This document shows positions 1,555 to 39,377 of a stretch of DNA of 64,000 bases, piece by piece. The notes under the pieces are model-generated. The model was not told the DNA's origin, did no database searches, and was given only the letters and a program-made list of their open reading frames with translations. Source of the stretch: an uncultured Candidatus Saccharibacteria bacterium (GTDB taxonomy: Bacteria > Patescibacteriota > Minisyncoccia > Phycocordibacterales > EsbW-18); the NCBI GenBank assembly GCA_964447415.1, contig CAYUSN010000003.1:5418-69417 (forward strand), written 5' to 3'. Each line of letters opens with the position of its first letter. Positions within the stretch are counted from its first letter, which is position 1. Position numbers and translations under genes: made by a program.

Positions 1555-1941
1555 ATGAAAACCATACTCGTTGATGCGGTATACGTGTTTGTAGATAAAG
1601 AGGGGAATATTGATGCGGGGCTCCACAAGCTTTTAGAGACATACCCGAACCGAAAAATTCTGCTCACCGGCGCTGATGATGTGCAGTTCAAAACATGGAA
1701 ACTCGACACAATGCCGTATGAAGTATTCACGCTCAAACATAACACTGAAAAATCAGACCCCGCGTACTATCAAAAGATGCTGGAATATTTCGGTCTCTCC
1801 GCAAACGATGTAGTGTATTTCGAGCACAGCCCCGACGCAGTCAAAAGCGCCGAATCTGTCGGCATTACCACATTTCTCTTCGATCACGAGACGCGGGATA
1901 TGAGCGCTCTCAAAAATTTCTTGGATACGAATTTGGGGTAA
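1555..1941 (+). CDS. HAD-superfamily hydrolase-like small protein
   Basis: 128 aa, begins ILVDAVYVFVDKEG (D-x-V-like motif I region) and has a later conserved D. The same TGATAAAAT-6 nt-ATG arrangement as the preceding gene. Confidence 0.5.
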   Translation: MKTILVDAVYVFVDKEGNIDAGLHKLLETYPNRKILLTGADDVQFKTWKLDTMPYEVFTLKHNTEKSDPAYYQKMLEYFGLSANDVVYFEHSPDAVKSAESVGITTFLFDHETRDMSALKNFLDTNLG

Positions 1942-1950
1942 GATGAACAC

Positions 1951-2484
1951 ATGCGTTATTTTATCGGTTTTCTTATTGAGGGAGAGGCAGGCACGTGGCA
2001 TGAGGCGCTCACCCGCGACATATCCGAGCGCTTCGGCACCCGCAAACTCCACGAGCGCGTGGTCCCGCACATAACTCTCTATAGGCCGTTTGATGCCGAT
2101 GACATCGCGCCTGTTAAAACCCTGCTTCAGTCATGGACAAAGCAGGAGCATGCCCCCGGAACAATTACGCTCTCCGGATTCGGTCACTTCACCGACCGCG
2201 TTGTGTATGCGTCTGTCACACTCGAAGCAAAAGCACAGCAGAACATTCTTGCTCTGCGCAGGGAAATTATGACCCTTCTTCCCAAAGAGGACTTTCCGAA
2301 CTGGGTACCGCACGCAACACTTGCCGATGAGTATGAGACACCGGAGATCATCACCGAAGTATGGGAATATGTGCAAACACTTCCAAAACCTGAATTTACC
2401 GTTCCGTTTAATAACGTCACGCTCTTTCGCAACAGAGCAGGCGGAGGTTGGGATGTAGATGAAATTTTTCAAATTTTGCACTAA
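1951..2484 (+). CDS. 2H phosphoesterase superfamily protein (LigT / 2'-5' RNA ligase-like)
   Basis: Two H-x-T-x motifs (PHITLY and PHATLA) at the expected spacing. TAAGAT lies 6 nt before the ATG. Confidence 0.7.
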   Translation: MRYFIGFLIEGEAGTWHEALTRDISERFGTRKLHERVVPHITLYRPFDADDIAPVKTLLQSWTKQEHAPGTITLSGFGHFTDRVVYASVTLEAKAQQNILALRREIMTLLPKEDFPNWVPHATLADEYETPEIITEVWEYVQTLPKPEFTVPFNNVTLFRNRAGGGWDVDEIFQILH

Positions 2485-5988: not shown

Positions 5989-6023
5989 GTGCTACAAAAG
6001 AGGCGAGAGCGCCCGGAAACTAC

Positions 6024-6051
6024 TTGACTTTTTGTTTATTTCTGCTATAAT
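6024..6051 (+). promoter_or_regulatory. Near-consensus sigma70 promoter (TTGACT, 16-nt spacer, TATAAT)
   Basis: TTGACT at 6024-6029 and TATAAT at 6046-6051. A perfect 7-bp hairpin (GACCGCA-catttt-TGCGGTC, 6089-6108) follows in the 5'UTR, then SD AAGGAG. Confidence 0.6.
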
Positions 6052-6135
6052 AGCAAAGGATAGTCAAGGAACGCTCTTTGACTCGGGCGACCGCACATTT
6101 TTGCGGTCATCATAGACTAGATAAGGAGAAACCGA

Positions 6136-6459
6136 ATGAAGATTCGCATGCTGGTGGTGTTCGTCCTCGTCCTCGCGTCCTTCGGGACGCCGATGCAGGC
6201 GACGGATGTCGCCACCTCCATCGAGATCCTCCCGCTGGGAGCCGGTCTGGACAGGGTCATGTTGACCCCGGACTACTTCACTCGGGTCGGCGACGTCAGC
6301 TTTTATGGCTTCGTCGAGTACTCGGGTGAAGCCGGCGGATGGTACACCAACCATTCGGCGACGTGGCTCCCGGGTGGTTCCTGGATCGGTCTTCGGGCCG
6401 AGGTTGAGGTTGCCGGCAGCGATCGCACGGTGCGGTTCGGCGCTCGCAAGGTGTTCTAG
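6136..6459 (+). CDS. Small secreted protein (signal peptide) of unknown function in GC-rich islet A
   Basis: 107 aa with N-terminal MKIRMLVVFVLVLASFGTPMQA. SD AAGGAG lies 8 nt upstream. Roughly 62% GC with G/C in most third positions, unlike flanking genes. Ends ...RKVF (C-terminal Phe). Confidence 0.55.
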   Translation: MKIRMLVVFVLVLASFGTPMQATDVATSIEILPLGAGLDRVMLTPDYFTRVGDVSFYGFVEYSGEAGGWYTNHSATWLPGGSWIGLRAEVEVAGSDRTVRFGARKVF

Positions 6460-6503
6460 TTCTCCCAACCACAACCTTCGAAAGGAGGTTCGAGGAAAAA
6501 ACA

Positions 6504-6548
6504 AGCCGCCGAAAGAGTCGTCACTCTTCTCGGCGGCTCTTTCGTTTC
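6504..6548 (+). terminator. Rho-independent terminator
   Basis: 14-bp interrupted stem AGCCGCCGAAAGAG...CTCTTCTCGGCGGCT followed by CTTTCGTTTCT. Confidence 0.6.
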
Positions 6549-6664
6549 TAAGTAAATACGCCCGAGACGTGTTGTTAGAAAACACTTGCACGCGCACACA
6601 AGCATCCGTACACTGCTATACGGACGGACGCGCAATTCCGCGCACCTGACGAAGGGAGCACCTC

Positions 6665-6787
6665 ATGCGTAAGGCACGGCAGGGTCGCAACCGCCACTGC
6701 AAGAGGCTGTCGCTGCGGTTCTTTCTCCAGAACCGCTGGCCCAACCACCGGCGGGTGATCCTCGCTCTGCGGTGCAAGTTCGCCTGA
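6665..6787 (+). CDS. 40-aa arginine/lysine-rich peptide (not in the ORF track), islet A
   Basis: MRKARQGRNRHCKRLSLRFFLQNRWPNHRRVILALRCKFA. Own promoter-like TTGCAC-17-TACACT (6586-6614), SD GGGAG 6 nt upstream and own terminator. Confidence 0.35.
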   Translation: MRKARQGRNRHCKRLSLRFFLQNRWPNHRRVILALRCKFA

Positions 6788-6813
6788 ACGCGAACAAGAA
6801 AGACGTTTTTACA

Positions 6814-6847
6814 GGGGGCGCCACCACGGCGCCCCGCTTGTTTTTTT
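6814..6847 (+). terminator. Rho-independent terminator
   Basis: GGGGGCGCC-accac-GGCGCCCC followed by GCTTGTTTTTTT. Confidence 0.6.
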
Positions 6848-6877
6848 ACGTTACGACCGTATACTGAAAGAGTAGCG

Positions 6878-7068
6878 ATGACGCCGATAACACGGCCGAG
6901 CTTAGGGGAAGAACCTCCGCCCATAACGGAGCAGTAGAACCTCTCGGGTGCGCCCGACACAGCGCGCAATGAAGACAGAAGTGAGGTGGCACCGCGGTCT
7001 CATGATCGCCCTTACACATTCAGCAGACCTGCACGGTTTGGTGGATTGGTAAGGGTGATTTTTCGTTT
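6878..7068 (+). promoter_or_regulatory. T-box-like riboswitch leader of aspS (putative promoter TTGTTT-16-TATACT at 6838-6865)
   Basis: AGAAGUGAGGUGGCACCGCGG (6977-6997) matches the T-box consensus AAnnnGGGUGGnACCGCG. The UGGC bulge would pair with a G73 tRNA such as tRNA-Asp. An 11-bp terminator stem ATCGCCCTTAC...GTAAGGGTGAT plus TTTTCGTTT follows. GAC triplets are present in the putative stem I. Confidence 0.5.
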
Positions 7069-7090
7069 ATACTTAACAGTACGTACACAT

Positions 7091-8497
7091 ATGAACAACC
7101 GCATCTACATTAAGGATTTAAGCAGTCACATCGACAGCACTGTTACCATTGCCGGCTGGGTATCCGTACGCCGTGACCACGGCAAGCTTATTTTTATTGA
7201 TGTACGCGACGAAACAGGCAAAGTACAGGTTGTGGTTACGCCGAAAAACGCCGCAGCACTTGCAGTAGCAAACACACTGCGCTCCGAGTGGGTGGTAACA
7301 CTGCAGGGGGAAGTGAAAGCGCGTCCTGAAAATCTCGTGAACGCAAACGAGCCCAACGGTTCCATTGAATTTGGCGCAACGGCAATTACCGTGCTCTCAC
7401 AGGCAGTGACACCTCCGTTTGATCCGACACAAGACACTTTGGGCACAAACGAAGAAACACGACTGCAGTACCGCTACGTAGACCTCCGCTCCGCGCGCAT
7501 GCAGAAAAACATCCGCATCAGATCGGAGTGGGTGCAGAAATGCCGCGAATTTTTATTTGCAAAAGGATTCACCGAAATTGAAACGCCGCTGCTCACACAA
7601 TCTACTCCCGAGGGGTCGCGCGACTTTTTGGTGCCGTCACGACACGCGCCGGGCAACTTCTACGCGCTTCCGCAGTCACCGCAACAGTACAAACAGCTTT
7701 TGATGACGTCGGGGTTTGAAAAATATTTCCAGATTGCGCGATGCGTCCGCGATGAAGACCTGCGCGCCGACCGCGGGTACGAACACACCCAGCTCGACTT
7801 GGAAATGGCGTTTGTGACGCGTGACGAGGTGATGGACCTCGTTGAGGAGATGATTACCACGGTCGTGGAGCACTTCGGAAAAGAAATCAAACATAAACCG
7901 TTTCCGCGCATCACCTATACGGAGGCGATGAAAACATACGGCGCCGACAAATTTGATATGCGCACACCCGAAGAAAAAGAGAAGGGGGTTTTGGCATACG
8001 CATGGGTCACCGACTTTCCGTTTTTTGAAAAAGGAGACGACGGCAAGTGGACGTTTTCACACAACCCGTTTTCAATGCCGAAAGAAGAGCATTTGGAATG
8101 GCACATGAAAGGGGAGCACATTGAAGACATCGTCACCCAGCAGTACGACCTGGTTTGCAACGGGTTTGAAACAGGCGGCGGTTCCATCCGCGCGCACCGA
8201 CCTGAAATCCTTGAAGCAACGTACAAAATCATGGGATACACGTCCGAGGAAATACAAGACAGCGTGGGTCACATGCTTGAAGCGTTTTCACACGGCGCCC
8301 CTCCGCACGGCGGTATCGGCATGGGCATTGAGCGCGGGGTCATGATTGTCACCGGTGAGGCATACCTACGCGAGGTGCAGGCATTCCCGATGACCGGAAA
8401 AGGAAAGACCGCAGTCATGCACGCGCCGGGACCCGTCACACCGACCGTTTTACGCGAACTCGGACTCTCGGTCCTCAAAAAGGACGAGAAGAAATAA
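7091..8497 (+). CDS. aspS: Aspartyl-tRNA synthetase (bacterial-type core, no GAD insertion domain, 468 aa)
   Basis: OB-fold N-terminus; class II motifs QSPQQYKQLLMTSGFEKYFQIARCVRDEDLRADR and GGGSIRAHR. The track ORF extension from 6986 runs through the leader and is rejected. Confidence 0.9.
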   Translation: MNNRIYIKDLSSHIDSTVTIAGWVSVRRDHGKLIFIDVRDETGKVQVVVTPKNAAALAVANTLRSEWVVTLQGEVKARPENLVNANEPNGSIEFGATAITVLSQAVTPPFDPTQDTLGTNEETRLQYRYVDLRSARMQKNIRIRSEWVQKCREFLFAKGFTEIETPLLTQSTPEGSRDFLVPSRHAPGNFYALPQSPQQYKQLLMTSGFEKYFQIARCVRDEDLRADRGYEHTQLDLEMAFVTRDEVMDLVEEMITTVVEHFGKEIKHKPFPRITYTEAMKTYGADKFDMRTPEEKEKGVLAYAWVTDFPFFEKGDDGKWTFSHNPFSMPKEEHLEWHMKGEHIEDIVTQQYDLVCNGFETGGGSIRAHRPEILEATYKIMGYTSEEIQDSVGHMLEAFSHGAPPHGGIGMGIERGVMIVTGEAYLREVQAFPMTGKGKTAVMHAPGPVTPTVLRELGLSVLKKDEKK

Positions 8498-23513: not shown

Positions 23514-23540
23514 GGCCCAGTGGACGAATCCACCGGGCCC
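23514..23540. terminator. Bidirectional hairpin terminator at the left edge of islet C
   Basis: GGGCCCAGTGGA-cgaa-TCCACCGGGCCC followed by CCTCTTTCCTTTCGG, between convergent mazG-like and islet gene C2. Confidence 0.5.
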
Positions 23541-23568
23541 CCTCTTTCCTTTCGGAAGAGCGTTCGTG

Positions 23569-23961
23569 TCAGGTGAGGAGCTCGACGGTGTTGGGCGACA
23601 TGGTCGCCTTCCCACCGCCATCGAGCATGACCTTGAGGATGAAGTCGCCCCGGATCTCGGCGACGACGCCCTTGGGCCTGCTCGCCATCGCCGCGTCGAG
23701 CACCTTCGTGCCGACGTCGATGCCGAGCCGCTGGATCACCAGCTTCCGGCGCGAGAGCGCCCTCCAGAGCGTGATGGCCTTGATGGTCTGGTGGAAGCCG
23801 ACGAAATCCGTGTATTGCATGATGCCACGGATCTCCGCCAGCATCTCGCTCTTGGCCTTCTTGTCCCTGGTCCTGTACGACCTCTCGGAGAGCTGGTCGA
23901 CCCGATCGAGTTGCTCCTGTGATTCGGCGAGGATGAACCTGTCCCGCAACTTCTCCTTCAT
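23569..23961 (-). CDS. Hypothetical 130-aa protein, GC-rich islet C (gene C2)
   Basis: About 62% GC with GC3 bias; SD GAGGGAGG 7 nt before the ATG; no recognisable family. Confidence 0.5.
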   Translation of the reverse strand: MKEKLRDRFILAESQEQLDRVDQLSERSYRTRDKKAKSEMLAEIRGIMQYTDFVGFHQTIKAITLWRALSRRKLVIQRLGIDVGTKVLDAAMASRPKGVVAEIRGDFILKVMLDGGGKATMSPNTVELLT

Positions 23962-23994
23962 GTGGTACCTCCCTCTCGTTGCTGGTTGGGTTGG

Positions 23995-24468
23995 TTAGGT
24001 GGACGGGTCGAGGATCTTGGCGACCGCCTCGGGCTTGACGATGAACCGACTCATGTCCGAGCCAGCGTAGAACGGCCGACGTTGATTCGTGCGCATCCAC
24101 GTGGCCAGCTCGCGACACTGGTTCGCCATCTCCTTCTCGATCTGTTCGACCGAAGCGATCTTCGGCGCGTGCCAGCCGCGGCGCTCCCTCCACCAGCGGA
24201 TGATGGGGTTGCGCTTGGTGTGCTCGCTGACGACCTCTTCGTGGCGCCGAACGGAGCGGTTGTGGAACTCCGTGGCGGCTTCCTTGAAGACCTCGACGAT
24301 CTGCTCGGGGGTGAGCGTCTCCCACTCCTTGCCGCCGAAGATCGGGACGTCGTCGAAGAAGGTGTGGAACCTATCGATTGGGTCCGTCGGCTTCTTGTTC
24401 AGATCGATCTCTTCGACCGAGACGACCCGCATTCCCTGCGCCGTCTTCTTGTAGCCGATTGTCAACAT
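23995..24468 (-). CDS. Hypothetical 157-aa protein, GC-rich islet C (gene C1)
   Basis: SD AAAGGAGGAG 8 nt before ATG (MLTIGYKK); basic W/R-rich centre IRWWRERRGWHAP; no recognisable family. Confidence 0.5.
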   Translation of the reverse strand: MLTIGYKKTAQGMRVVSVEEIDLNKKPTDPIDRFHTFFDDVPIFGGKEWETLTPEQIVEVFKEAATEFHNRSVRRHEEVVSEHTKRNPIIRWWRERRGWHAPKIASVEQIEKEMANQCRELATWMRTNQRRPFYAGSDMSRFIVKPEAVAKILDPST

Positions 24469-24555
24469 CTTTTTTACTCCTCCTTTACGAGGCAGTGGTT
24501 GATCAGAAAACCGAGATGGCATCCTGGTTCACCGCACCACTTACATCTGTAGAGT

Positions 24556-24583
24556 ATTATACACATTTTTGTCATAATGTCAA
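24556..24583 (-). promoter_or_regulatory. Near-consensus sigma70 promoter (TTGACA, 16-nt spacer, TATAAT) driving islet C
   Basis: On the minus strand, TTGACA (+24578-24583) and TATAAT (+24556-24561). It abuts the divergent recR -35 candidate TTGCAA at 24584-24589. Confidence 0.6.
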
Positions 24584-24629
24584 TTGCAAAAAGAAAAAGG
24601 TAAAAATAAATTTCTGTTAAAATACCCGT

Positions 24630-36514: not shown

Positions 36515-37081
36515 TTACACCGCGTTGTACGCACGCCACTTCGCCGCGAAATCTTTCTTCGTGAGCACAAAGAGGATTTCGTCGTGGTACTTCCCTTCAC
36601 GGAAGAACCACTTCGGGTACACACCGACTTGGCGGTACCCTTGCTTGAGAAGCGCCTTGTGGCTCCGTACGTTGTACGCGATGACCGAGGAACGGATGGC
36701 ACGGAGGTTCATACGGTGAAACGCGAAGAAAAGCAGTTGCATCTTCGCGTCCGTCCCATACCCCTTCCCCCAGTACTGCTTCTCCCCGATCATCGCGCCC
36801 GTGAGCGCAGTGCGGTTTATCCAGTTGATGCGATGAAGACCGACGGACCCGATGGGCACACCTTCCAAGGTCTCGATGACCAGAAAGATATCCTCCTCGC
36901 TCTGGGACAGGCGATCGAGGGATGCCGTTTCCATCGGTTCCGTCATGGGATGCCACATCGTGAGAAAGCGCGTGAGCTCCGGATCGTTGACCCAACGGAG
37001 CATGAGCGGAAGATCCGTATCTTTTTGATACGGGCGCAGGATGACCTTCTTCCCGCGCAGGAACACCGGTTTGTTTTCCAT
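36515..37081 (-). CDS. GNAT family N-acetyltransferase (RimJ/RimL-like)
   Basis: 188 aa with a ...GYRQVG acetyl-CoA-binding region and EKQYWGKGYGTDA. Confidence 0.7.
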   Translation of the reverse strand: MENKPVFLRGKKVILRPYQKDTDLPLMLRWVNDPELTRFLTMWHPMTEPMETASLDRLSQSEEDIFLVIETLEGVPIGSVGLHRINWINRTALTGAMIGEKQYWGKGYGTDAKMQLLFFAFHRMNLRAIRSSVIAYNVRSHKALLKQGYRQVGVYPKWFFREGKYHDEILFVLTKKDFAAKWRAYNAV

Positions 37082-37120
37082 CTGATTCCCCTTTCATTTT
37101 TTGGTTGTGAAAGAACACGC

Positions 37121-37156
37121 TAAACAAAAATCTCGGCTTTTGTTCAGCCGAGATTT
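37121..37156 (-). terminator. Rho-independent terminator about 130 nt downstream of the uvrB stop
   Basis: Minus strand: AAATCTCGGCT-gaacaaa-AGCCGAGATTTTTGTTT. Confidence 0.6.
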
Positions 37157-37289
37157 CTCATTACGTAACTGAAGAGAAATAAGCACTCACGGCCGAACAC
37201 AAGGAAAAACGCCCCACACGCCCATTGAGAGCGCGCAGAAGTGTTTATCGATATTCGGCTGTGTGTATGCTGTATGCATAACAGACTGA

Positions 37290-39377
37290 TTATGACTTCC
37301 TTCTTTTTTTTGTCAATGTTGGTGCGCGTACAGCTTTTTTCTTTGCAATACCAAGCACTTTCTCAATCTCCGCAATTTCGTCGCGGATGATGGCCGCGGT
37401 TTCAAAATCAAGCACCTTCACCGCATCGCTCATCTCCGCTTCTTTGCGTTTGATGAGTTTTTTCACGTCTTTCTCCCCTGCCCCGATATCCAGCGCAACC
37501 AACTCCGCGACGGTGCGGTCGTGTTCGCGCAGCATGTAATCGGTAATGTCGGAGATTTTTTTGTGAATGGTCTGCGGAGTAATGCTGTGTTTCGTGTTGT
37601 ACGCAATTTGAATCGCGCGACGTCGGTTTGTCTCACCGATTGCGCGCTCCATGGAGCCGGTCATCACATCGGCATAAAGAATAACGCATCCCAACACGTT
37701 TCGTGCGGCGCGTCCGATGGTCTGAATCAAAGACGTTTCACTGCGCAAAAACCCTTCCTTGTCGGCATCCAATATTCCGATAAGCTCCACCTCGGGCAAA
37801 TCCAGTCCTTCACGCAGGAGGTTGACCCCCACAAGCACATCAAACCCGCCACCCTTCGCGCCCTTTCTGAACTTGGTCAGCAGTTCTATACGCTCGATAG
37901 TTTTGATGTCGGAGTGCAAATACTCCGCCACAATCCCTTTCTCTTTCAGGTAGTCGGCAACATCTTCGGCCATGCGTTTCGTCAGCGTCGTCATCATCAC
38001 GCGCGCACCGCTCTCCACAACCTTTTTTGTTTCTTCAATAAAATCGTGCACCTGCCCTTTAAATGCGCCCTTCTCGGTAATGGGCCGTACGATGATTTCA
38101 GGGTCAATGAGCCCCGTCGGACGGATAATCTGCTCGACGACGCCGTCTTCCCCGCTTTCTTTCAGCTCATATTCGGCGGGTGTTGCCGATGTGTATACCG
38201 TCTGTCCCGTGCGCTGTGTAAATTCATCAAATGTGAGCGGGCGGTTATCAAACGCCGACGGCAGACGGAATCCGTACTCCACAAGGTTTTTTTTGCGTGC
38301 CTGATCGCCCGCATGCATCCCGCCGATTTGCGGCAATGTGACATGCGATTCATCAATCACTGTGAGAAAGTCAGGTGTGCCATCTTTCTTTTTCGGAAAA
38401 TACTCCAAAAGTGAGAACGGCGGCTCACCGGGTGCACGGCCGTCGAAGTGCCGTGAATAGTTTTCAATGCCGTTGACATACCCCACCTCGCGAATCATCG
38501 CCAGATCGTAGTTTGTCCTGCGTTTCAGGCGCTCCGCCTCAAGTGGTTTTCCTTCCGCTTCAAGTTTCTTCAAATGCACCGAAAGCTCCTCTTTGATGGT
38601 TCCAATTGCACGCTCAATGCTTTTTTTGTCGGAAACGAAATGTTTTGCGGGAAACACAAAGATATGTTCAGCACTCTCGCGGATAGTGCGCGACGTTGCG
38701 TCAATAGCATCAATTCCCGAGACCATATCGCCTTCCAAATCAATCCGATACACGATTTTCTCGTTCACCGGCATAATCTCAACTGTATTGCCGATGGCGC
38801 GGAACGTTCCCGGGGAGAGGTCGCCGGTAGTGCGTTCAAAATAAATACCGACGAGTGCACGAATAAGGTCTGTGCGCGGATACGACTGTCCTTTTTCAAT
38901 TTTTAAATGCACTTTTTCATACTCCTCCGGTCGCCCGAGGTTGTAGATGCATGACACCGATGCCACTACAATCACATCCTCTCGTGTGAGAAGTGCTTGT
39001 GTTGCGGCGTGACGCAAACGGTCAATCTCTTCGTTGATTTGTGTTTCCTTTTCAACGTACGTATCGGTCACCGCAACGTACGCTTCCGGTTGATAGTAGT
39101 CGTAGTATGAAACAAAATAATGCACCGCGTTGTTCGGAAAAAAGTCGCGGTATTCCTGCGCCAGCTGCGCCGCAAGCGTTTTGTTGTGCGCAATCACCAG
39201 TGTCGGTTTGCCTGTTTGCGCTATGACATTTGCCATCGTAAAGGTCTTGCCGGATCCTGTAACGCCTAAGAGCGTCTGATGTCGTTTTCCCTTCTCCAGA
39301 CCCGCTACGAGCCCGGAAATGGCCTTCGGCTGGTCTCCTGCGGGTTTAAATGCGCTGTGTAAGTCAAAAGTTGCCAT
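37290..39377 (-). CDS. uvrB: Excinuclease ABC subunit B
   Basis: GVTGSGKTFT Walker A, DESH helicase motifs and C-terminal UVR domain. Confidence 0.92.
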   Translation of the reverse strand: MATFDLHSAFKPAGDQPKAISGLVAGLEKGKRHQTLLGVTGSGKTFTMANVIAQTGKPTLVIAHNKTLAAQLAQEYRDFFPNNAVHYFVSYYDYYQPEAYVAVTDTYVEKETQINEEIDRLRHAATQALLTREDVIVVASVSCIYNLGRPEEYEKVHLKIEKGQSYPRTDLIRALVGIYFERTTGDLSPGTFRAIGNTVEIMPVNEKIVYRIDLEGDMVSGIDAIDATSRTIRESAEHIFVFPAKHFVSDKKSIERAIGTIKEELSVHLKKLEAEGKPLEAERLKRRTNYDLAMIREVGYVNGIENYSRHFDGRAPGEPPFSLLEYFPKKKDGTPDFLTVIDESHVTLPQIGGMHAGDQARKKNLVEYGFRLPSAFDNRPLTFDEFTQRTGQTVYTSATPAEYELKESGEDGVVEQIIRPTGLIDPEIIVRPITEKGAFKGQVHDFIEETKKVVESGARVMMTTLTKRMAEDVADYLKEKGIVAEYLHSDIKTIERIELLTKFRKGAKGGGFDVLVGVNLLREGLDLPEVELIGILDADKEGFLRSETSLIQTIGRAARNVLGCVILYADVMTGSMERAIGETNRRRAIQIAYNTKHSITPQTIHKKISDITDYMLREHDRTVAELVALDIGAGEKDVKKLIKRKEAEMSDAVKVLDFETAAIIRDEIAEIEKVLGIAKKKAVRAPTLTKKRRKS

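Follow-up and report, generated by a model that had tools for sequence, protein, structure and literature searches.

The DNA analysed here, referred to below as the window, is a stretch of 64,000 nucleotides from an uncultured Candidatus Saccharibacteria bacterium (assembly GCA_964447415.1, contig CAYUSN010000003.1), and our subject is a GC-rich islet of about 850 bp within it—islet A, positions 6000 to 6850—which lies between a Ser-hydrolase gene on its left and the T-box leader of aspS on its right. An earlier note on this DNA had described there two self-contained expression units, one for a secreted protein of 107 amino acids (aa) and one for a basic 40-aa peptide, and had taken them for a recently acquired effector or peptide module. 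The promoters, hairpin, Shine-Dalgarno (SD) sequences, terminators and the two open reading frames (ORFs), here ORF107 and ORF40, are indeed all found where that note had placed them (Table 1). The interpretation changes: islet A is quite probably what decay has left of a strain-variable accessory islet in a Paceibacteria-type Patescibacterium, composed of a half-deleted cassette for a predicted beta-barrel protein and of the remnant of an operon.

Table 1. Features of islet A and of its right border; positions are those of the window
Feature	Position	Strand	Remarks
Unit 1, cassette from promoter to terminator	6015..6549	+	Block conserved in the relatives L083 and L093
Sigma-70-type promoter TTGACT-16-(TG)TATAAT	6024..6051	+	11/12 match, extended TG
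Structured 5' leader	6058..6135	+	Hairpin 1, hairpin 2, SD
Leader hairpin 1	6063-6082	+	Arms GUCAAGGA/UCUUUGAC
Leader hairpin 2	6089-6108	+	Arms GACCGCA/UGCGGUC
SD AAGGAG of ORF107	6123-6128	+	7 nt 5' of the ATG
ORF107, 107 aa, ends in Phe	6136..6459	+	Signal peptide plus strands beta1-5 and beta12 of a predicted 12-stranded porin-like barrel
Deletion junction	6391..6404	+	Microhomology CCGAGGT inside the imperfect repeat CTTCGG..CCGAGGT
Intrinsic terminator of unit 1	6504..6549	+	15-pair hairpin 6504-6538, then T-rich tail; conserved in L083 and L093
Window-specific spacer with proposed promoter TTGCAC-17-TACACT (6587-6615)	6550..6627	+	No counterpart in L083 or L093
Short ORF40 leader	6628..6664	+	GCGC/GCGC hairpin, SD GGGAG 6654-6658; 100% identical in L093
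ORF40, 40 aa, candidate small basic protein	6665..6787	+	10 Arg, 3 Lys, no acidic residue
Intrinsic terminator of unit 2	6815..6847	+	8 G-C pairs (6815-6835), then GCTTG + T7
T-box leader of aspS, right islet boundary	6869..7068	+	Terminator hairpin 7009-7055 and T run; T-box motif AGGUGGCACCGCG

Composition and expression signals of the islet

Between 6015 and 6850 the GC content is 60-65%; locally it reaches 0.65 (6151-6450), whereas the left flank has 0.42-0.55 and aspS 0.48-0.55. The GC content at third codon positions (GC3) is 0.82 for ORF107 and 0.85 for ORF40, compared with about 0.36-0.71 for some 60 long host ORFs, and just two more spots of the window, 23569-24522 and 36515-37081, display values similar to those of the islet. 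A sliding phase analysis resolves two separate blocks of high GC3, 6115-6460 and 6650-6790, each in a frame of its own; the excess corresponds to a binomial P of 1e-5 for ORF107, and for ORF40 to a permutation P of 4e-4 in the same phase or 1e-3 in any phase. With such GC3 values the islet has the deviant base composition and codon usage by which genomic islands are recognised. An antisense ORF of 177 aa (6064-6597) was rejected as a real gene on account of its wrong GC pattern over the three codon positions and the absence of a Pfam match.

The expression signals are also unlike those of the host genes, and the rarity of canonical SDs and consensus promoters in the window, which the earlier note had pointed out, is borne out by the counts. 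For a crude set of starts, SD-like motifs are present 5' of 4 out of 62 host ORFs; of the 38 host genes starting with ATG, 17 have a -10-like box (TANNNT) ending 3-12 nt upstream of this codon, versus 8% in the background (for example at the starts 1081, 1555, 3813, 24630, and, on the minus strand, 31174 and 39377). This suggests that host mRNAs are mostly leaderless, leaderless translation being the default in this organism. Promoters matching the consensus at 11 or more of the 12 positions number only four on both strands of the 64 kb, that of unit 1 being among them. Unit 1 forms a monocistronic cassette in which a consensus promoter is followed by a leader with two hairpins, the SD, the ORF and an intrinsic terminator; its leader folds with a minimum free energy of -24.1 kcal/mol (z = -3.1), no covariation being found in hairpin 2, and its terminator region (6455-6560) with -35.5 kcal/mol (z = -4.7). 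The earlier description of the stretch as self-contained expression units is supported; the promoter of unit 2, as detailed below, is weak and not conserved.

One and the same genome would then harbour a dichotomy: native genes that are leaderless, with a -10 box only and without SD, and on the other side a few GC3-rich cassettes, each combining a consensus -35/-10 promoter with a structured leader and a strong SD. This raises the question of why two regimes of translation initiation coexist.

The deletion in ORF107

ORF107 has no match in Pfam or NCBIfam, and a word-indexed protein search retrieved only the query itself. A profile search led to P0014, a protein of 203 aa whose first 90 and last 11 residues are identical to those of ORF107; compared with full-length relatives, about 96 central alignment columns are missing from ORF107, the protein junction being GLRAEV/EVAG. 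On DNA, L083—the contig of P0014—aligns to the window on either side of a gap of 288 nt, with 382 of 383 positions identical in the 5' part of unit 1 and 138 of 149 in its 3' part, after a hydrolase gene identical at 592 of 606 positions. The two BLAST segments of L083 overlap at 6391-6404, and so do the two of a second relative, L093; the similarity to L083 stops exactly at 6549, and L093 yields the same block limits. Two more independent assemblies (L001 and L002, from two runs) show the deletion as well, which makes it real and very recent. By these alignments ORF107 is an in-frame deletion derivative, shortened by 96 codons (288 nt), of a 203-aa beta-barrel gene, rather than the secreted mini-protein or effector that had been supposed.

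The deletion, which would have occurred between the CCGAGGT microhomologies, takes out strands 6-11 of the predicted barrel and leaves in the window copy the signal peptide and 6 of the 12 strands. The Sec-type signal peptide of the unit 1 product appears intact: judged by eye from MKIRMLVVFVLVLASFGTPMQA/TD for a basic n-region, a hydrophobic core and an A-x-A-like cleavage site, it is of a type conserved across the family alignment, and in the AlphaFold2 (AF2) model of P0014 the signal-peptide region forms an N-terminal helix at residues 2-16. To that extent the former description of a 107-aa protein with a signal peptide holds, though not as a bona fide mini-protein. Because the expression signals and the signal peptide are intact, the 107-aa product is probably still made and exported. 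Its AF2 model has 6 strands, with a mean predicted local distance difference test score (pLDDT) of 71 and a predicted template modelling score (pTM) of 0.55. As a 12-stranded barrel cannot be closed by such a product, we consider it most likely non-functional, the window copy representing a very recent loss-of-function allele.

The intact family and its hosts

When 1.84 billion representatives were searched exhaustively with HMMER, ten matches came up, of which eight are real, the complete ones measuring about 200-223 aa; P0008 and P0013, long repetitive proteins, were rejected as spurious. No match was found with the family profile in a scan of JGI metagenomes and of viral contigs, nor in phage and plasmid collections (DNA and protein searches), PHROGs or PADLOC; a phage, plasmid or defence origin can be rejected as far as the searched libraries reach. 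At E <= 1, neither ORF107 nor six full-length relatives match any Pfam or NCBIfam profile, Channel_Tsx included, and a sequence search of the PDB connects the family to no solved protein.

The AF2 model of P0014 (pLDDT 86, pTM 0.77) consists of the N-terminal helix and 12 strands. When it is submitted to Foldseek, membrane beta-barrels make up 48 of the 50 matches listed, nearly all of them natural outer-membrane proteins; the closest folds are those of Tsx, PcoB, NanC and KdgM, Tsx being the best. As modelled, the family thus displays the 12-stranded antiparallel transmembrane beta-barrel typical of small porins. Hydrophobic and charged faces alternate in several strands of P0014, and the C-terminal Phe is invariant across the family. 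Apparently, these proteins form a small group restricted to Patescibacteria, Sec-exported, of about 200 aa and predicted to be 12-stranded barrels of the small-porin type, a group to which the gene of unit 1 would belong; the intact members may insert into a membrane and function as channels. In the literature searched, porin-like barrels had not been described from Patescibacteria.

The comparison with known porins also reveals differences. With Tsx (PDB 1tlw) the sequence identity is 11%, the mature protein has about 180 residues in the family versus about 250, and the hosts are Patescibacteria instead of diderm Proteobacteria; the window copy, in addition, is half a barrel only. KdgM and NanC—12-stranded porins for acidic sugars—and PcoB have no detectable sequence relationship with the family, and differ from it by their setting: signs of an outer membrane and of the beta-barrel assembly machinery (BAM) are lacking in the host lineage, with no Omp85/BamA on any of the family host contigs read, none of which is a complete genome. 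These contigs carry neighbours typical of Patescibacteria, namely RNase Y, HU, TrmB, ClpP and trigger factor.

In every host (at least six) the GC3 of the family gene far exceeds that of its neighbours: 0.76 vs 0.35-0.59 in L091, 0.64 vs 0.25-0.34 in L090, 0.69 vs about 0.5 in L086. The gene is also preceded by a long leader carrying a strong SD. Between the family genes of L083 and L085 the identity by codon position is 0.84, 0.90 and 0.62; third positions differ between family copies by 23-38% and the proteins diverge by 16-20%, GC3 being kept at 0.81-0.85. At the level of the copies compared, this shows purifying selection on the family protein together with a maintained compositional bias. 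Since GC3 stays at the same level despite the turnover of third positions, its high value, formerly read as a sign of recency, is no evidence of recent import. High GC3 and SD use are, as far as these copies tell, a persistent signature of a class of cassette genes and not a mark of import. More generally, caution is called for before GC3 islands are read as recent transfers, the composition of the cassettes having been maintained through long divergence.

In L086 (7101-9428), between the genes for RNase Y and ClpP, three adjacent genes with a GC3 of 0.69-0.77 (about 0.45-0.63 nearby) encode a secreted protein (197 aa), a polytopic membrane protein (239 aa) and the barrel homologue (213 aa). 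The order barrel-ClpP-Tig recurs on the contig of P0012.

The family gene is not bound to one chromosomal site. Behind the same hydrolase gene as in the window, it is found intact in L083 and L093, and in L093 it also precedes the same T-box and aspS. In L084 and L085, whose flanks are about 83% identical to the window, the cassette lies between a Pyr_redox_2 gene and uvrB, two genes that are adjacent in the window (39377/39385). At both sites the insert spans from the -35 box to the terminator.

The two-hairpin leader of unit 1 (GTTCTTTGAC..., then GACCGCAC..GCGGTC, then AAGGAG) is found twice in L085, at 83-160 and 1190-1256, 5' of the barrel gene and of an unrelated 311-aa gene whose receiver-domain match is weak and sub-threshold; a variant lies in L084 at 585-669. 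Its presence before two L085 genes hints at common regulation. Across the leaders the 5' arm of hairpin 1 varies and the 3' arm YCUUUGA, complementary to AAGGA, is kept. A regulon defined by the motif GTTCTTTSA plus the GACCGCA hairpin, which seemed common to the cassette leaders, was rejected, the short motif being too common in a regex census and hairpin 2 lacking covariation.

Unit 2 and the competing readings

The contig L093 (34 kb) clarifies unit 2. Its gene order is methyltransferase, (YdjM), hydrolase, the intact 203-aa gene, a 125-aa Excalibur-domain gene (GC3 0.58), an SD-led GC3-rich Zn-ribbon ORF of 71 aa, ORF40, terminator, T-box, aspS, scpA and scpB. The window is 99-100% identical to L093 over 6628-7287, and the equivalent of 6628-6664 is in L093 the intercistronic spacer following the 71-aa ORF. 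Because the identity has this extent, with the 71-aa ORF before ORF40, the latter is the distal gene of a separate small operon. By this comparison, unit 2 is the 3' half of a GC3-rich, SD-led two-gene operon that is intact in L093; the 71-aa ORF and its upstream region, gone from the window, would have been lost, leaving ORF40 behind. The promoter formerly proposed for unit 2 is weak and not conserved: its hexamers match the consensus at 8 of 12 positions, below the scan threshold, and it sits in the sole part of unit 2 without counterpart in L093. Nor do the two units make up one module, for in L093 they are set apart by a host-like Excalibur gene and the Zn-ribbon ORF, and unit 2 stays linked to the aspS leader.

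ORF40 itself is unproven as a gene. It has no homologue in a word-level protein search, its degenerate back-translated pattern has no match in metagenome contigs, a tblastx search against all loci matched identical contigs only, and gene callers do not annotate it. Its frame-specific GC3 and its SD nevertheless favour coding, in which case translation may depend on read-through or on a fortuitous weak promoter.

A different view of unit 2, unlikely in our opinion, is that it corresponds to a structured small RNA or to a part of the aspS regulatory region, ORF40 being incidental. The lack of protein homologue and of annotation would agree with this, as would the link to the T-box leader, with which unit 2 is conserved at 99-100% in L093, and a GC-rich sequence with a rod-like predicted fold (z = -2.3) ending at a strong terminator. 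However, the z-score is modest, and a search of 6000-6860 against Rfam at E <= 10 gave only noise (freshwater-2, 17.7 bits; ylbH, 14.2 bits). The three-base GC periodicity in the ORF40 frame (P = 4e-4) is not expected for an RNA gene, the SD is well spaced in a genome that otherwise rarely has one, and in L093 ORF40 comes operon-like after another SD-led, GC3-rich ORF.

The import of the whole 850 bp as one recent module, a small secreted effector with a basic peptide, is quite improbable. Composition and SD usage are certainly very unlike those of the host genes, the region is strain-variable, and the cassette occupies the other locus, between Pyr_redox_2 and uvrB, in L084 and L085. Moreover the window between 4576 and 7287 is 94-100% identical to L093 (6740-11095), from the methyltransferase gene to the first 65 or so aspS codons, in a backbone otherwise 60-85% identical, which suggests a recent exchange of a wider region between related lineages: past a breakpoint near 7288, inside aspS, the identity falls to 55-88% and stays low through scpA/scpB, and left of 4576 the genes are entirely different from those of L093. 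The block would be either a recent between-species recombination tract or the product of a chimeric L093 metagenome contig. On the other hand, the mini-protein of that scenario is a deletion allele of a 203-aa gene, the units are separate entities, and GC3 is no clock, being maintained across a protein divergence of 16-20%. Recent gain would leave the orthologous site of close relatives empty; L083 and L093 carry the cassette precisely there, with the same composition, the very observation by which the earlier note had said its proposal of recent horizontal acquisition would fall. Finally, the 1.84 billion representatives contain no donor outside Patescibacteria-like contigs, and the phage, plasmid and viral-contig collections contain no match.

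More distant relatives (L003, L004, L058) lack synteny altogether and are hence uninformative on the orthologous site. The same absence of shared upstream synteny was met in all 80 Patescibacteria loci of an aspS-based genome scan, and tblastn detected no family gene in these loci. AspS of the window is a short bacterial-type enzyme with its best genomic relatives, at 77% identity or less, in metagenome-assembled genomes of Paceibacterota/Parcubacteria.

The preferred reading, a decayed strain-variable islet, finds parallels in the small islets of self-contained cassettes that vary among strains, through the deviant composition, the own promoter and terminator, the presence or content varying among close relatives, and the other chromosomal site in L084 and L085. 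In L083, the DNA downstream of the cassette (1565-2202, minus strand) is not aspS and holds two more GC3-rich genes (0.80-0.81), one of them a fragment of an M50 site-2 protease; the islet content is thus different in each of three close relatives. At the opposite, no integrase, transposase or other recombinase, tRNA target, direct or other repeats or attC-like site were found at the cassette borders, the window has no islet-related repeats, and the composition bias is held over long divergence instead of fading. An integron cassette or a transposon was rejected for lack of repeats, attC site and integrase: unlike an integron gene cassette, unit 1 has its own 11/12 promoter, no integrase ORF in its flanks and a T tract after the 3' hairpin.

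It is very unlikely that the 107-aa product has become a functional neo-protein, i.e. a 6-stranded unit dimerising into a 12-stranded barrel or a secreted beta-sheet protein. The in-frame deletion does fuse two homologous hairpins (GLRAEV/EVAG) with an even number of strands retained in the AF2 model, signal peptide, C-terminal Phe and all expression signals are preserved, and the allele is present in several samples. Yet the confidence of the model is low, the short architecture is seen in no other family member among all the relatives found, and the near-identity to intact copies makes the allele very young and untested by selection; besides, a third of all deletions would keep the frame by chance. 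As for an assembly or binning artefact joining foreign DNA to a Patescibacteria contig, to which the foreign-looking composition and the metagenomic source of all data might point, it is hardly conceivable given that the same hydrolase and aspS junctions occur in the independent assemblies L001 and L002 (two runs), the same left junction in L083 and L093, which come from other samples, and that the deletion microhomology, 7-14 nt, is below the k-mer length of assemblers.

Some points weigh against the interpretation of islet A as a decayed porin-type cassette with an operon remnant. The family has no sequence-level link to any porin family; its fold is predicted from an alignment of nine sequences, and its C-terminal motif, in our own reading of the alignment, fits the classical BAM beta-signal only in part. 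The few Patescibacteria with a described envelope are monoderm (PMC8871954), where a transmembrane beta-barrel would have no obvious destination. An in-frame deletion keeping an even strand number (6) could in principle still yield a functional protein, and the window copy differs too little from the intact alleles for a relaxed-selection test. ORF40 is 100% identical in the sole relative carrying it, so that substitutions give no evidence for coding, and L093 could be a chimeric metagenome contig, as the sharp identity drop at 7288 might indicate.

Taken by itself, the window copy is a decaying allele, an ordinary case of genome erosion. Its importance is that it leads to an undescribed and very rare family modelling as an outer-membrane-type 12-stranded channel in obligate epibionts regarded as monoderm. 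If fold and location are true, some Paceibacteria would either possess an outer barrier or insert porins into their hosts, the latter being a directly testable mechanism of nutrient piracy. A bolder proposal, which we regard as a long shot, would make the intact family a genuine small porin of epibiotic Patescibacteria devoid of outer membrane, which after export would open a nutrient channel either in the host bacterium's outer membrane or in an outer layer of the epibiont that has gone unrecognised; the cassettes would then form a distinct host-interaction class, GC3-rich, SD-led and driven by consensus promoters, shuffled between related genomes, and the window cassette would have just been inactivated. 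A pointer in this direction is that the best fold match, Tsx, is a nucleoside channel. To our knowledge, epibiotic Patescibacteria cannot make nucleotides.

At the right border, outside the islet, the aspS leader has the T-box sequence, the terminator hairpin and the downstream aminoacyl-tRNA synthetase gene expected of a T-box (RF00230). In a 1.3-kb search Rfam matches it at 6869-7016 with 28.9 bits (E = 3e-4), far below the gathering score of 93, and it differs from the model by a drastically short Stem I, 2 positions taking the place of 72. Upstream of aspS in L004, the minus-strand translation ...QLGRVIGV... resembles ...KLGRVIGV... of the window T-box region, which hints at a T-box-like element there as well.

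Elsewhere in the window, SD-led, GC3-rich genes are located downstream of three of the four near-consensus promoters. A second self-contained GC-rich islet extends over 23520-24590 on the minus strand. Its promoter at 24583, TTGACA-16-TATAAT, is perfect; two ORFs with SDs come next, one of 157-175 aa (GC3 0.82) and one of 130 aa (GC3 0.92), and a GC-rich terminator closes the islet. These ORFs have no significant match in Pfam, PHROG or PADLOC. A GNAT acetyltransferase gene (36515-37316, minus strand; GC3 0.76) is preceded by the promoter TTGACA-16-CATAAT and a leader of about 200 nt, in which GTTCTTTCA could pair with the SD region TGAAAGGGG. Another comparatively GC-rich gene is that for S-adenosylmethionine synthetase (88-1068; 60% GC, GC3 0.65), which comes after a hairpin resembling a terminator (34-59). 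Lastly, six tRNA genes on both strands (Ala-GGC, Arg-CCG, Ala-CGC, Pro-CGG, Ala-TGC and Val-CAC) are clustered between 27106 and 29661, where they are overlapped by spurious long ORFs.

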